Assembly (NCBI GenBank): GCA_913040915.1
Contig: CAJWHW010000004.1
Location: 15,351 to 79,350, forward strand
Reading direction: 5' to 3'
DNA from: an uncultured Fidelibacterota bacterium
Lineage (GTDB): Bacteria > Fidelibacterota > Marinisomatia > Marinisomatales > UBA1611
DNA length: 64,000 nt
Made by a program: the position numbers and the translations under genes. Shown piece by piece: positions 23,551 to 27,448 of the stretch (position 1 is its first letter; every line of letters starts with the position of its first letter). A model generated the notes under the pieces. That model was not told the DNA's origin, did not search any database, and saw only the letters and a list, made by a program, of their open reading frames with translations.

Positions 23551-24267
23551 ATGAAGCCTACTCGTTTCCATTCCTGGAATGTTTCTCCTGAAGAAGCATC
23601 TGCAATTCAGCTCAATTTGCGTGATAAAGTTGAAGTTCAACCTTTGCCAAATGATATTGAATTGGTGTGTGGGACATCTATATCTCATGATCCAAATACC
23701 AATACAGTGCATGTAGCATTAGTGGTCTCAAAATTTCCAGCGATGGAATTAGTAGAGTGTCACAGTCTATCAGAAGAAACCACATTCCCTTATGTTAGTG
23801 GTCTATTGGCATTTCGGGAAGCACCGTCTTTGATGACATTGCTAAAGAGAATCCAGTACCAGCCTGATGTAATATTATTTCATTCTCACGGGCTTGCCCA
23901 CCCCAGAAAGTTTGGCTTAGCATGCCATTTAGGTGTTTTATTTAATATACCATCGATTGGTGTTGCAGACCGGGTTTTGGTTGGATACCATGATAATTTG
24001 CCGATAGAGAAAGGATGCTATGTCCCACTTAAGGATAACAAGCAAGAACTTGGACTTGTTCTGCGTACAAAGGAAGATGAGAATCCTATATTTGTTTCTG
24101 TTGGGCACAAATCGGATCTTTTCACTGCTATGGAATTAACTATGAAATGCATCACGCGTTACCGGCATCCCGAACCCATACGCCAGGCACAATTAGCTGT
24201 GAGAGCCCAAAGAGATGGTGAAAATATTGATTTAGAACATGGTAGTAATCAAGCGTCTTTATTTTAG
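23551..24267 (+). CDS. nfi: Endonuclease V homolog with substituted catalytic residues
   Basis: FPYVSGLLAFRE, HPRKFGLACHLG, PIFVSVGH and PEPIR motifs; the catalytic Asp positions are replaced. Confidence 0.85.
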   Translation: MKPTRFHSWNVSPEEASAIQLNLRDKVEVQPLPNDIELVCGTSISHDPNTNTVHVALVVSKFPAMELVECHSLSEETTFPYVSGLLAFREAPSLMTLLKRIQYQPDVILFHSHGLAHPRKFGLACHLGVLFNIPSIGVADRVLVGYHDNLPIEKGCYVPLKDNKQELGLVLRTKEDENPIFVSVGHKSDLFTAMELTMKCITRYRHPEPIRQAQLAVRAQRDGENIDLEHGSNQASLF

Positions 24268-24430
24268 TACATATTTTTATGCTCCAAATAAAACAATAAC
24301 TATAGGAATTGTAAGTTTCTAGGATAGAGGTTAGAGTTTTAGCATAATGGTCACTTATTTCTTATTTTATATTTTAGTTATTAATAATAACCTAACATTG
24401 TTTTTTTAAAGTAAAAATAAAGGAATAGAT

Positions 24431-24784
24431 ATGTCTGAATTCACCCTATATCATAATCCAAGGTGAGGGAAAAGCAGGGGAGCCGTGTCGCTCCTCAAAG
24501 AAGAAAATATAGATTTCAAAATTATAGAATATTTAAAAACACCCTTAAATAAAAAAGAAATCTTATCTATCTCTAAAAAACTGAACCTTCCTCCATCAGG
24601 TTTTGTGCGAAAGAATGAAGTAGAATTCAAAGATAATAATTTGAGTGATGAGCTTGATAATGATGAAACAATGGCAGAAGCAATCGCGAAATTTCCAAAA
24701 ATTATGCAACGTCCCATTGCTGTTAAAGGCAACCAGGCAGTCATTGGACGTCCGCCAGAAAATGTTTTAATTTTAATTCGTTGA
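24431..24784 (+). CDS. arsC: ArsC-family (glutaredoxin-type arsenate reductase-like) selenoprotein; in-frame TGA at 24464-24466 read as Sec
   Basis: SD-like AGGA at 24421 and ATG at 24431 give MSEFTLYHNPR-(TGA)-GKSRGAVSLL, continuous with the 24485 ORF; the TGA sits at the catalytic Cys of HNPxCxxSR; conserved Arg in FVRK, QRPI and GRPP. Confidence 0.85.
24477..24496 (+). promoter_or_regulatory. Candidate bacterial SECIS element
   Basis: Stem GGGGAGC/GCTCCTC with loop CGTGTC; 17 nt lie between the UGA and the loop, and the loop has G in position 2. Confidence 0.7.
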
Positions 24785-24795
24785 GAGAAAAAAAC

Positions 24796-25905
24796 ATGAA
24801 AAAAACATTATTGCTTTTTACCCTGTTTATCATGTGCTGTGAGCCATTCGTTACCACCTTCCCAGACTCATCTGATGCAGTCATGTATGAAGCTACTGAT
24901 AAGACCAATGTGGCTTATAGTGGAGAAAATATAAAAGTGATTACATGGAACATCCGTTTTGGTGTTGGACGTTTTCCATTCTTTGGCGATTCCTGTGGTG
25001 ATAGTGTTATTTTAGATGATGGTTCCATTGAAAAAATAATGTCTAACATAGCAGACTCCATTAATGCTATGAATGCTGATATTGTGTTGTTGCAGGAAGT
25101 GGATGTATCATCGAAAAGAACAGGCTACATAGATCAGGTTCAATATCTTTTGGACAATACCCACATGAATTATGGGTGTTACGCTTCCATGTGGAAGGCC
25201 GATTATATACCTAGTGGTGGCATTGGACGTGTTGATGCTGGGAATGCTATTTTATCAAAATATAAACTTACAGATGCAGAACGAATCCAACTTAGGCTAA
25301 GAACAGATCAGGACGAGTTGATTCAGTATTTTTATTTAAGACGTAATATATTAAAAGCAAAGGTCCCTGAATTATCACAAGGAGGAAAATCTTTTTATGC
25401 TGTGGATATCCATGCTACAGCTTTTGCAACAGATGATACCAAACAGCAGCACATTGATAAATATGTTCAAACTCTAGCAACTATTCATAATAATGGTGAT
25501 TATTTTGTTACCGGAGGTGATCTCAATTCTGTGCCACCTGGATCGGTTACCGATTTTTGTGAAAGTGATATGTGTGAAGGAGATGATTACCACACTGAAG
25601 GTGCTGAAGAATATCATAAAGAGGGGAGCTATTTCGAAAACTTTGATGGTGAACCTGATCTGTTGCTTCCGCTTTATAACTCTTACAATGCGGCTATCGA
25701 TTCGGCAGATGCAAATCTTCCTGGTCATTTTACCCATGGCCCGAGTACCAGTTATGAAATTAATAATATTAAATATGATAGAAAATTGGACTATCTTTTT
25801 ACGAATAAAACTTGGGTAGATGGCGCATCCAGAACGCACCAAGCAGCCTGGGCACTAAGTGATCATATGCCGGTTAGCTCAATTATAAATATGGGAGGTG
25901 ATTAA
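24796..25905 (+). CDS. Endonuclease/exonuclease/phosphatase (EEP) family protein, probable lipoprotein
   Basis: TWNI, LQEVD, GNAILSK, GGDLN, LDYLF and SDH motifs; signal peptide ending in Cys; ATG at 24796. Confidence 0.85.
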   Translation: MKKTLLLFTLFIMCCEPFVTTFPDSSDAVMYEATDKTNVAYSGENIKVITWNIRFGVGRFPFFGDSCGDSVILDDGSIEKIMSNIADSINAMNADIVLLQEVDVSSKRTGYIDQVQYLLDNTHMNYGCYASMWKADYIPSGGIGRVDAGNAILSKYKLTDAERIQLRLRTDQDELIQYFYLRRNILKAKVPELSQGGKSFYAVDIHATAFATDDTKQQHIDKYVQTLATIHNNGDYFVTGGDLNSVPPGSVTDFCESDMCEGDDYHTEGAEEYHKEGSYFENFDGEPDLLLPLYNSYNAAIDSADANLPGHFTHGPSTSYEINNIKYDRKLDYLFTNKTWVDGASRTHQAAWALSDHMPVSSIINMGGD

Positions 25906-26708
25906 TGGGCCGTATCATTTCTTCTATACTTCTTTCCTGTTATCTTATTGCAGAAACCAAAATTTGGGATTCCCATTCTGCTTACTTGCTTCCTCAAAAA
26001 CGATGGGAAATAGGTTTGTTTCAGCCATTTAGATATGGCTATTCAGATAAATTGGAATATAGTGTATATCCATTATGGTTTTTTGTCATGCCTAATATAT
26101 CTTTGAAAAAGCCTTACAAGCCAATTGGCAGTTTCACAAGTGCATTTCAATCTTCCTTGTTTTATCCAACGCCTTTTCTCAATATGATTGCTAAGAAAGA
26201 TATTTTGGGTTTCATTTCTCCAGAATTTCAAATTCCACCCATGCTTGGTCTTTCTGGTACATTCCTTATATCTAATAATATAGCTGGGGTGGATTTAACT
26301 GTAAATGGTGGTTTAGACTTAGGCCTAGTGATGGGTGATTTGGATTATCGCTCCACTATTGATCTGCCCCTCGTGTATCATCGTTTGGGCGTGTATTACA
26401 ACAATTGGGGAATGCATATGGGATTAGATATACAGAAAAGTATTTCATCAATGATAGAAATTTTAGTTGATATTGATTACAGACTATTGCCTGAATTTCC
26501 TTTAAAACAGTTAGGAAAGAATTATTCTATAGAACATAAGCTTATTCTTAGTTGGAGAAAATCAGATCACTTCCGGTTAATAACCGGTTATAAATTTGTT
26601 ATGGGAGAGTTTCCTTACGGTTCCGATATGCGATTACTACCCTATATACCCTTAGTTGAACGATGGGTACCCATAATTGAATTACAATGGGCTGGGAGAA
26701 AAAAATAA
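25905..26708 (+). CDS. Hypothetical secreted/outer-membrane protein
   Basis: Signal-like N-terminus and aromatic-rich alternating pattern; coupled to the EEP gene by a TAATG overlap. Confidence 0.6.
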   Translation: MGRIISSILLSCYLIAETKIWDSHSAYLLPQKRWEIGLFQPFRYGYSDKLEYSVYPLWFFVMPNISLKKPYKPIGSFTSAFQSSLFYPTPFLNMIAKKDILGFISPEFQIPPMLGLSGTFLISNNIAGVDLTVNGGLDLGLVMGDLDYRSTIDLPLVYHRLGVYYNNWGMHMGLDIQKSISSMIEILVDIDYRLLPEFPLKQLGKNYSIEHKLILSWRKSDHFRLITGYKFVMGEFPYGSDMRLLPYIPLVERWVPIIELQWAGRKK

Positions 26709-26725
26709 AATTAATCCAAATTCTA

Positions 26726-27448
26726 TTAGTTAAAAATTCGGTTTAACATTTCATATAATTCTGGGTTAGGGATTCCTTGCCCAAGATATATTTCATGCTG
26801 CTTGTTTTGCAGTATCATTTCCCAATGAAGATGAGATTGTTTTTTTGTCCCTAATGTGCTTGCTTTCATTCCAGTATTTCCTGACTTACCAATTACTTCA
26901 TTTGCTAATACTTTTACTCCAGGTTTGATATTTTTTTCAATGTGGGATAAATGCGCATAAATTGTAATGGTTCTAAACCCCGGAACAAGACCAAATCCAT
27001 GATCAATAAAAATTGCTTTCCCTAATAAAACATTATTAAATATATCAGAAGGCGTTGAGCCCACTTTTCTGCTAGCCTCCAGCATGTTTACTCTAAAACT
27101 TGCAGGCACTTCCATATAACCATGATCTGCTCGTACGACAACACCATTTGCAACTGCATGCACTGCTGTTCCCCAATTTGCTAAAAAATCCACACCACGA
27201 TGAATACCGCTTCGATTATCTCTAGGTGCATTTGGAAGATAACCAGACTGTTTTGGAACTTTGATATTTTTACATGGCAGAGCAAGTTGAAGAGAGTCAA
27301 CCCACTTAGGATTAAAAATCTCTTTTTTGATTTCTTTGTCCTGTTTTACTGTGATTGAAGTTATAACGGAGAGACTTGAGTTTTTAGGACTCTCAGCTGA
27401 TTGAGCAAGCATTATGGAGCCTCCAAATAATAGTATTTTTAATTTCAT
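26726..27448 (-). CDS. M23 family metallopeptidase
   Basis: HRGVD, YAHL, GKSGNTG and HLH motifs; signal peptide. Confidence 0.9.
   Translation of the reverse strand: MKLKILLFGGSIMLAQSAESPKNSSLSVITSITVKQDKEIKKEIFNPKWVDSLQLALPCKNIKVPKQSGYLPNAPRDNRSGIHRGVDFLANWGTAVHAVANGVVVRADHGYMEVPASFRVNMLEASRKVGSTPSDIFNNVLLGKAIFIDHGFGLVPGFRTITIYAHLSHIEKNIKPGVKVLANEVIGKSGNTGMKASTLGTKKQSHLHWEMILQNKQHEIYLGQGIPNPELYEMLNRIFN

Follow-up and report, generated by a model that had tools for sequence, protein, structure and literature searches.

An arsC gene with an in-frame UGA codon

The window analysed here is a stretch of 64,000 nucleotides from an uncultured Fidelibacterota bacterium (GenBank assembly GCA_913040915.1, contig CAJWHW010000004.1, positions 15,351 to 79,350). 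This stretch is present in sequencing runs of marine metagenomes, and the G + C content is 35.6%. On the plus strand the window contains a gene of the ArsC (arsenate reductase) family, in which a TGA stands in frame at the codon of the catalytic cysteine. We read it as a genuine gene for a selenocysteine (Sec, U)-containing ArsC-family protein with a conserved bacterial selenocysteine insertion sequence (SECIS), and put the probability of this reading at about 0.93. What the analysis shows directly is the reading frame, a UGA codon that is conserved and gives way to Cys in some orthologs, a hairpin that is conserved and covaries, the genes selA, selB and selD, and the catalytic residues.

In the list of open reading frames (ORFs) made with translation table 11, the gene starts at GTG 24485 and ends at 24784, which gives a 99-codon ORF and a product of 99 aa. 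An ATG is present in the same frame, 18 codons upstream of this GTG (24431-24433). From there the sequence reads M-S-E-F-T-L-Y-H-N-P-R, TGA (24464-24466) and G-K-S-R, and with the TGA read as U the frame comprises 117 codons up to a second TGA at 24782-24784. The following features were assigned:

24420-24424, plus strand: Shine-Dalgarno-like AAGGA, 6 nt before the ATG, read from the sequence
24431-24784, plus strand: predicted CDS, coding for a Sec-containing member of the ArsC family with U at residue 12 (117 aa) and ending with the stop codon TGA at 24782-24784
24464-24466, plus strand: UGA, predicted to be read as selenocysteine (U12), aligned with the catalytic Cys12 of ArsC
24477-24496, plus strand: predicted bacterial SECIS hairpin, with 5' arm at 24477-24483, loop CGUGUC at 24484-24489 and 3' arm at 24490-24496
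24485-24487, plus strand: GTG within the SECIS loop, taken as start codon by ORF finders; the GGAG of the 5' arm before it resembles a ribosome-binding site
24608-24610, plus strand: codon of Arg60, of the presumed arsenate-binding Arg triad, invariant in alignment A1 and aligned with R60 of 1i9d
24710-24712, plus strand: codon of Arg94, invariant in alignment A1 and aligned with R94 of 1i9d
24749-24751, plus strand: codon of Arg107, invariant in alignment A1 and aligned with R107 of 1i9d

A preliminary description of this locus had stated that the ORF track starts the gene at 24485, that an ATG at 24431 preceded by a Shine-Dalgarno sequence reads HNPR-TGA-GKSR in frame, and that a hairpin follows at 24477-24496. 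The start at 24485 recurs in the table 11 list, the ATG and its frame were confirmed at these positions, and the hairpin is present, with a 7-bp stem and a 6-nt loop. The description had also placed the UGA at the nucleophilic Cys of the ArsC motif HNPxCxxSR, and this agrees with the alignment of U12 with C12 of 1i9d described below.

Family membership and catalytic residues

All profile scores were taken with C standing in for U12. The protein scored 48.9 bits against the Pfam family ArsC (PF03960; cut-off 24, E = 8.1e-13) and 110 bits against TIGR00014, the NCBIfam equivalog model for arsenate reductase (glutaredoxin) (cut-off 106.05). The score against the Spx/MgsR model TIGR01617 remained below its cut-off (41 versus 75.05 bits), and the motif is UxxS, not CxxC. 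The UxxC ArsC-like family NF041106 was absent from the NCBIfam matches at E-values up to 0.01.

The alignment with R773 ArsC (1i9d/1jzw) is gapless, residues 1-116 matching residues 1-116, and U12 falls on C12. R60, R94 and R107 are conserved with respect to 1i9d and are invariant in the 22 sequences of alignment A1. From the literature on R773 ArsC we take these three residues to be the triad that binds the oxyanion (arsenate).

Conservation of the UGA codon

A gene search was performed in 61 genomes, comprising that of the window and 60 relatives. The arsC gene was found in 44 of them, including 30 of the 36 genomes of the same family, a clade with genomes of roughly 2 Mb. The best 30 of the 44 loci were read at the DNA level. 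The codon of U12 is TGA in 27 of these loci and TGT or TGC in the other three (L039 and L040, both from one genus, and L044); TAA, TAG or TGG was found at this codon in none of the 30. The loci with TGA span many genera at 45-75% protein identity, and the rest of the gene is intact. The terminal TGA of the window gene (24782-24784) is TAA in orthologs of identical length.

In 27 of the 30 loci a start codon precedes the Tyr of YHNPR by exactly six codons. Codons 7-11 show synonymous change at every position: TAT (14) and TAC (9), CAT (15) and CAC (9), AAT (14) and AAC (10), and four different codons for Pro and five for Arg. Since Y-H-N-P-R is kept through this free synonymous change, the stretch upstream of the UGA must be translated in this frame. 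In addition, contigs of the runs X2, X5 and X7, from three marine studies, cover 24464-24466 and have no difference listed there. This agreement between independent studies excludes a sequencing or assembly error at the TGA.

An unrooted tree of 33 ArsC sequences requires three changes of the Sec/Cys label (two to three in bootstraps) and is compatible with a single origin and with either direction of exchange between Sec and Cys. The Cys-form arsC genes of L039 and L040 (genus g13) have a nitroreductase gene upstream and a SusC-like TonB receptor gene downstream, and their products group with other Cys forms in the tree. The Cys form of this genus may represent a replacement rather than an in-place change from Sec to Cys. 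A search of the genome contigs for related loci gave one locus, a Cys form from Cellvibrionaceae with 48% identity.

The SECIS hairpin

The hairpin at 24477-24496 has a G + C-rich stem of 7 bp, a loop of 6 nt (CGUGUC) and an energy of -10.5 kcal/mol. The apical loop starts 17 nt after the UGA, and in its middle is GTG 24485, the start chosen by ORF finders. For bacterial SECIS elements (bSECIS), the available text of PMC13188914 gives a loop of 3-9 nt on a stem of 4-16 bp, a G in the first two loop positions that is usually followed by G or U, a distance of 16-37 nt between UGA and loop, and a minimum free energy (MFE) of -7.5 kcal/mol or lower. The arsC hairpin lies within this bSECISearch consensus for all four, with a loop of 6 nt, a stem of 6-7 bp, a G at loop position 2 followed by U, and a spacing of 17 nt; the MFE of the UGA plus 60 nt is -12.0 kcal/mol.

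The hairpin is kept in 24 of the 27 loci with TGA (Sec loci). These 24 make up the hairpin alignment; the other three, L042, L043 and L045, were excluded after their divergent downstream sequence was noticed. Within the alignment 85.7% of the helix cells are paired, versus 38.7-70.2% when the 3' partners are slid. GC is exchanged for AU on both sides at two pairs (9 cells), and none of 500 shuffles reached the observed covariation score. The compensatory changes tie the 5' arm to codons 21-22. Codons 18-20, which form the loop and the upper stem, are without synonymous variation (GCC in 24/24, GTG in 24/24 and TCG in 14/14 sequences), and the normalised codon entropy of the other conserved fourfold and sixfold codons of arsC (Ala, Val, Pro, Gly, Arg) is mostly 0.8-1.0. 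Within this clade the CGUG of the loop does not vary.

A geometric scan of the three Cys loci gave no hairpin of such geometry. The three Sec loci outside the alignment have a weaker 7-bp hairpin with the loop C-G-U-G-A, an energy of -3.6 to -6.1 kcal/mol and a spacing of 30. L042 originates from a genome of the same family, yet groups in the tree with sequences of another family. An Rfam scan of 24300-24900 with E-values up to 10 gave only chance-level matches and no SECIS family. A lineage-specific rule for a CGUG loop was considered and was not supported, as the selD hairpin of the same genome has the loop GUU at a spacing of 33.

Selenocysteine machinery

The genes selB (323.6 bits, open frame of 642 aa) and selA (492.1 bits, 460 aa) are adjacent on contig C16 of the genome. 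A selD gene (385.6 bits) is present on contig C6 and contains one in-frame TGA, at the canonical site H-G-S-G-U-A-C-K. All three genes scored above the curated cut-offs. Given the in-frame TGA at the Sec site of selD, the genome encodes at least one further selenoprotein. The frames of selA and selB are free of stops, from which it follows that TGA has its usual stop function in this genome and has not been reassigned to an amino acid. The selD gene of this genome (G000) runs from 66560 to 67486 on C6 (locus L006, 1411-2448, minus strand), and its hairpin, with the GUU loop 33 nt after the TGA, has a shape unlike that of the arsC hairpin.

Evidence against the reading and alternative explanations

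Several results weigh against the reading of this gene as a selenoprotein gene. The margin by which the protein exceeds the TIGR00014 cut-off is narrow (110 versus 106.05 bits), and the model for E. coli-type ArsC, NF007456, was not reached (62.7 bits versus a cut-off of 242). The fold of the single window sequence is unremarkable: its z-score is -1.15, and 30 of 200 shuffled sequences fold at least as well. The significance of the hairpin thus rests on the comparison with relatives. There, the outermost pair is unpaired in 17 of the 24 sequences, so that the conserved helix is 5-6 bp long; the folds of several orthologs, at -5.8 to -7.0 kcal/mol, do not reach the threshold of -7.5 kcal/mol; and L042, L043 and L045 carry the TGA without a hairpin at a spacing of 17. 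Transcript coverage came from one metatranscriptome run (X18, 0.04 of words), and this covers only 24939-25000, in the downstream gene.

In addition, a tRNA-Sec was not found in the assembly of the window's own genome, in which the best Rfam match scored 46.3 bits versus a gathering score of 47. This match was called tRNA-Ser by ARAGORN, which found no tRNA-SeC in the whole assembly. The negative result is weak, because the assembly has a completeness of 85% and contains no tRNA for His, Ile or Trp. A tRNA-Sec was detected at 58-70 bits in about 20 of the 25 relatives searched. The genome G001, of the same genus, has a tRNA-Sec of 63 bits, identified by ARAGORN as tRNA-SeC(tca). The flank of this gene (L053, G001:C202) matches contig C9 of our genome from position 2174 down to position 7; beyond position 7 no match to the G001 flank was found anywhere in our assembly. 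The synteny thus stops at the end of C9, about 0.8 kb short of the tRNA-Sec site. In several relatives the tRNA-Sec is located within about 100-600 bases of a contig end, which suggests a locus that is difficult to assemble. On the simplest view, selC of our genome is located in an assembly gap.

Among the alternative explanations, we considered that the real gene is the 99-codon ORF from GTG 24485, with GGAG and GTG as ribosome-binding site and start codon instead of a SECIS, and with the 11 codons and the TGA upstream as a leader or relic. ORF finders pick this start, 60 of the 120 best database homologs are calls truncated in this way, and neither the GTG nor the GCC before it varies in any of the 24 sequences, a constancy that a start signal might also show. 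However, the Y-H-N-P-R of codons 7-11 and the in-frame start six codons further up (27 of 30 loci) place the upstream stretch under selection at the protein level, and this stretch matches the catalytic loop of ArsC homologs with Cys residue for residue. A product of 99 aa would be without the first strand and the nucleophile. The GGAG ends 2 nt before the GTG, and a distance of 2 nt is too short between a Shine-Dalgarno sequence and its start codon. A start signal would also leave the compensatory changes between the 5' arm and codons 21-22 unexplained, and in L042, L043 and L045 both the TGA and the upstream frame are retained although codon 19 is not GTG. We therefore regard a start at GTG 24485 as very improbable. 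The same hairpin could also be another RNA signal, such as an intrinsic terminator of the opposite strand or an attenuator, and a terminator scan indeed lists it for the minus strand (24494-24479), with a T-rich stretch after it. It lies, however, inside conserved coding sequence and its presence tracks that of the TGA. The genes to the right are on the plus strand up to 26708, the nearest gene on the minus strand ends at 26726, about 2.2 kb away, and three terminator-like sites versus 1.0 expected are a weak signal. Such a role for the hairpin deserves hardly any credence.

The TGA itself could be a nonsense mutation in a pseudogene, or an error of sequencing or assembly in a TGT or TGC codon for Cys. 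TGA is one base away from both codons, and three orthologs have them. Against this, the same codon is TGA in 27 of the 30 loci, in many genera and in an otherwise intact gene; the contigs of three independent studies agree at 24464-24466; and the hairpin goes with TGA and is absent with Cys. Mutation or error is accordingly an exceedingly improbable cause. Equally far-fetched is TGA as a sense codon, for Trp (table 4) or Gly (table 25), with W or G as the residue. A W is found at the Sec site of 47 of the 120 best homologs, and in 10 of these 47 the protein extends beyond its usual end by way of a second W. However, the gene's own terminal TGA is TAA in orthologs of identical length, the frames of selA and selB are uninterrupted, and the single in-frame stop of selD is at its Sec site. 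At position 12 the only alternatives are Cys codons, with no case of TGG or of a Gly codon, the genome has dedicated Sec machinery, and Trp or Gly at the nucleophile would be expected to inactivate the enzyme.

The reading as a Sec-containing ArsC was thus retained. The preliminary description had proposed a Sec-dependent enzyme, and this is supported by the conservation of the UGA, the SECIS and the presence of selA, selB and selD. The checks that it had listed gave the following. UGA and Cys codons alternate among orthologs (27 loci with TGA, three with TGT or TGC), the TGA is kept in independent contigs, which answers the suspicion of a sequencing error, and the hairpin fits the bSECIS geometry in the available text of PMC13188914. 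Of the Sec machinery, selA, selB and selD were recovered, and the tRNA-Sec was missing from the genome's own assembly and present in G001.

Relation to known proteins

Selenoproteins of this kind have been described before. In the available text of the Sargasso Sea study (2005), the UXXS arsenate reductase is a new selenoprotein family with 14 sequences, for which a predicted SECIS is shown (PMC1088965). The corresponding text of the Global Ocean Sampling (GOS) study (2008) gives 77 Sec sequences of the UxxS arsenate reductase family (PMC2398784), and that of PMC1794560 gives ArsC-like selenoproteins in Desulfotalea and Desulfuromonas. In what is available of two reviews, of 2022 (PMC9312934) and 2026 (PMC13188914), the family is listed, in the latter together with TIGR00014. 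The statement of the preliminary description that Sec-containing ArsC is known from marine metagenomes is right according to the available text of PMC1088965 and PMC2398784. Since the family has been in print since 2005, the finding is a real one and not of a new kind; the window gene is a well-documented added member.

The gene shares with this family, 'Arsenate reductase (ArsC) 1' or UxxS, the membership of PF03960/TIGR00014, the motif U-G-K-S, the replacement of the catalytic Cys by Sec, a SECIS right after the UGA and the marine origin. No family-defining difference was seen in the window gene.

With R773/E. coli ArsC (1I9D, 1JZW) the protein has in common the gapless alignment over residues 1-116, the nucleophile at position 12 in H-N-P-x-C-x-x-S-R, and Arg60, Arg94 and Arg107. 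It differs from R773/E. coli ArsC in having Sec for Cys12, in its length (117 versus 141 aa) and in its location outside an ars operon; the E-value of the match is 6.5e-13. The closest solved structures are 3F0I ('arsenate reductase') and 3RDW ('putative arsenate reductase'), of 119-121 aa, with E-values of 3.5e-19 and 5.7e-19, respectively. These are of similar length and share the loop H-N-P-[RK]-C-S-K-S-R, but carry Cys. To our knowledge, their physiological substrates have not been established.

The UxxC 'Arsenate reductase-like protein' (NF041106; cd03032, 'Arsenate reductase 2' in GOS) also has the ArsC/Spx-superfamily fold and Sec at an N-terminal redox position. This family has a resolving Cys, whereas the window protein has Ser at this place (UxxS).

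Genomic neighbourhood and pairing with an EEP gene

The genes on both sides of arsC are on the same strand:

23551-24267, plus strand: endonuclease V, upstream neighbour, given as context only (Pfam PF04493, 2e-61)
24796-25905, plus strand: gene of the endonuclease/exonuclease/phosphatase (EEP) family, 11 nt after the arsC stop codon (Pfam PF03372, 1.9e-16)

The EEP protein has a signal-peptide-like N-terminus. In 24 of the 27 Sec loci (L016-L038 and L042), and in none of the three Cys loci, arsC is followed directly by a homolog of it (Exo_endo_phos) in the same orientation. Of the remaining Sec loci, L041 breaks off too close to arsC for a decision, and different genes adjoin arsC in L043 and L045. 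The arsC gene and the downstream EEP gene very probably form one operon and are probably co-transcribed. A promoter scan of 24150-26100 was uninformative, with 9 sites versus 8.0 expected. The upstream neighbour is variable in the relatives, in which endonuclease V, an AsnC-type regulator, a leucine-rich-repeat (LRR) protein or an asparaginase is found.

Proposed mechanism and function

Translation would start at ATG 24431. The hairpin at 24477-24496 would recruit SelB with Sec-tRNA(Sec) to the UGA at 24464-24466, so that Sec is inserted and termination does not occur; the second TGA (24782-24784), without such a hairpin, would act as the stop codon. The actual insertion of Sec at residue 12 is, in our view, very likely. 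The predicted product is a thioredoxin-fold protein of 117 residues, of the glutaredoxin-type ArsC family, in which the selenolate of U12 in H-N-P-R-U-G-K-S-R would replace the nucleophilic Cys12. Arg60, Arg94 and Arg107 would form the oxyanion-binding site that holds arsenate. By analogy with R773 ArsC, U12 may attack arsenate to give a covalent Se-As(V) intermediate, and a thiol, either glutathione (GSH) with glutaredoxin (Grx) or another thiol of the organism, may resolve this adduct with release of arsenite.

The following results count against arsenate reduction as the function of the gene. There is no ars operon around arsC, the neighbours being endonuclease V and EEP. Neither ACR3 nor ArsB was found in the 85%-complete genome. 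ACR3 exceeded its cut-off in six of the 41 genomes searched, two of them among the 24 of the same family; for ArsB-like matches the numbers were three of the 41 and one of the 24. The ArsB negatives are weak, because the PF02040 search missed the E. coli control genome, which we take to carry arsB. No ArsM was found above cut-off. With respect to the reductant, gshB reached 75 bits versus a cut-off of 299 and an E. coli-type gshA (Glu-Cys ligase) was not found, which argues against GSH; two glutaredoxin-domain genes are present in the genome. On balance, arsenate is slightly favoured as the physiological substrate, and GSH with Grx is a somewhat doubtful candidate for the reductant.

As a speculative and rather unlikely possibility, the Sec-containing ArsC might act outside classical arsenic resistance, and the gene pair in the scavenging of phosphorus. 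At the cell surface the esterase would release phosphate, and the selenoenzyme would handle the arsenate that enters with phosphate, or would reduce another oxyanion or a disulfide; the use of selenium would reflect a need for speed where substrate is very scarce, as in seawater. This suggestion is based on the presence of arsC in nearly every genome of the family, on the tight two-gene unit with an EEP phosphoesterase that resembles a secreted protein or lipoprotein, and on the fact that in most genomes no ACR3, ArsB or ArsM was seen. The pairing with EEP, the scarcity of pumps and the near-universal presence in one family-level clade were not found in the available text of the accounts of the UxxS family (PMC1088965, PMC2398784 and PMC13188914).

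On the reading of this gene as a selenoprotein gene, a whole family-level clade of small marine genomes would spend selenium on an ArsC-type enzyme, which would tie the use of selenium to the arsenic or oxyanion chemistry of the sea. The points of most interest are the substrate of the enzyme in cells seemingly without an arsenite pump, and the coupling to the EEP-family gene.

Annotation of the gene in databases

The annotation of the gene was counted in the 120 best database homologs from a protein search (P0002-P0121). In total 60 of the 120 are truncated, as the preliminary description had expected of standard pipelines, and 56 of these 60 start at the GTG of the loop, as MSLL or VSLL. Another 47 have W at the Sec site, as a result of the application of table 4, and 10 of these 47 read through the terminal TGA. 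Cys is carried by 11 of the 120 (for example P0107 and P0118), and the remaining two fall outside the pattern used. Truncation removes and the W call replaces the catalytic residue, so that a real gene is misread by standard pipelines in both ways.

Other TGA-interrupted frames and further observations

The entire 64-kb window was scanned for further genes interrupted by TGA. The scan gave 34 candidates, of which 11 were set aside (arsC, the ORF antisense to arsC, and nine long ORFs with a short tail after the TGA) and 23 were sent to Pfam. No second selenoprotein was seen among the 23 in this test. The sole Pfam match, purL, was rejected, as its TGA precedes the real start.

Large LRR proteins are encoded upstream of arsC in five relatives, and dioxygenase-domain proteins with C-terminal sorting domains of the type IX secretion system (T9SS) are encoded beside arsC in two. 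The loci concerned in these LRR and T9SS observations are L024, L025, L028, L030, L036, L041 and L045. The LRR proteins, the T9SS sorting domains and the SusC-like receptors in the flanks of the relatives hint at a position of the clade in the FCB group.

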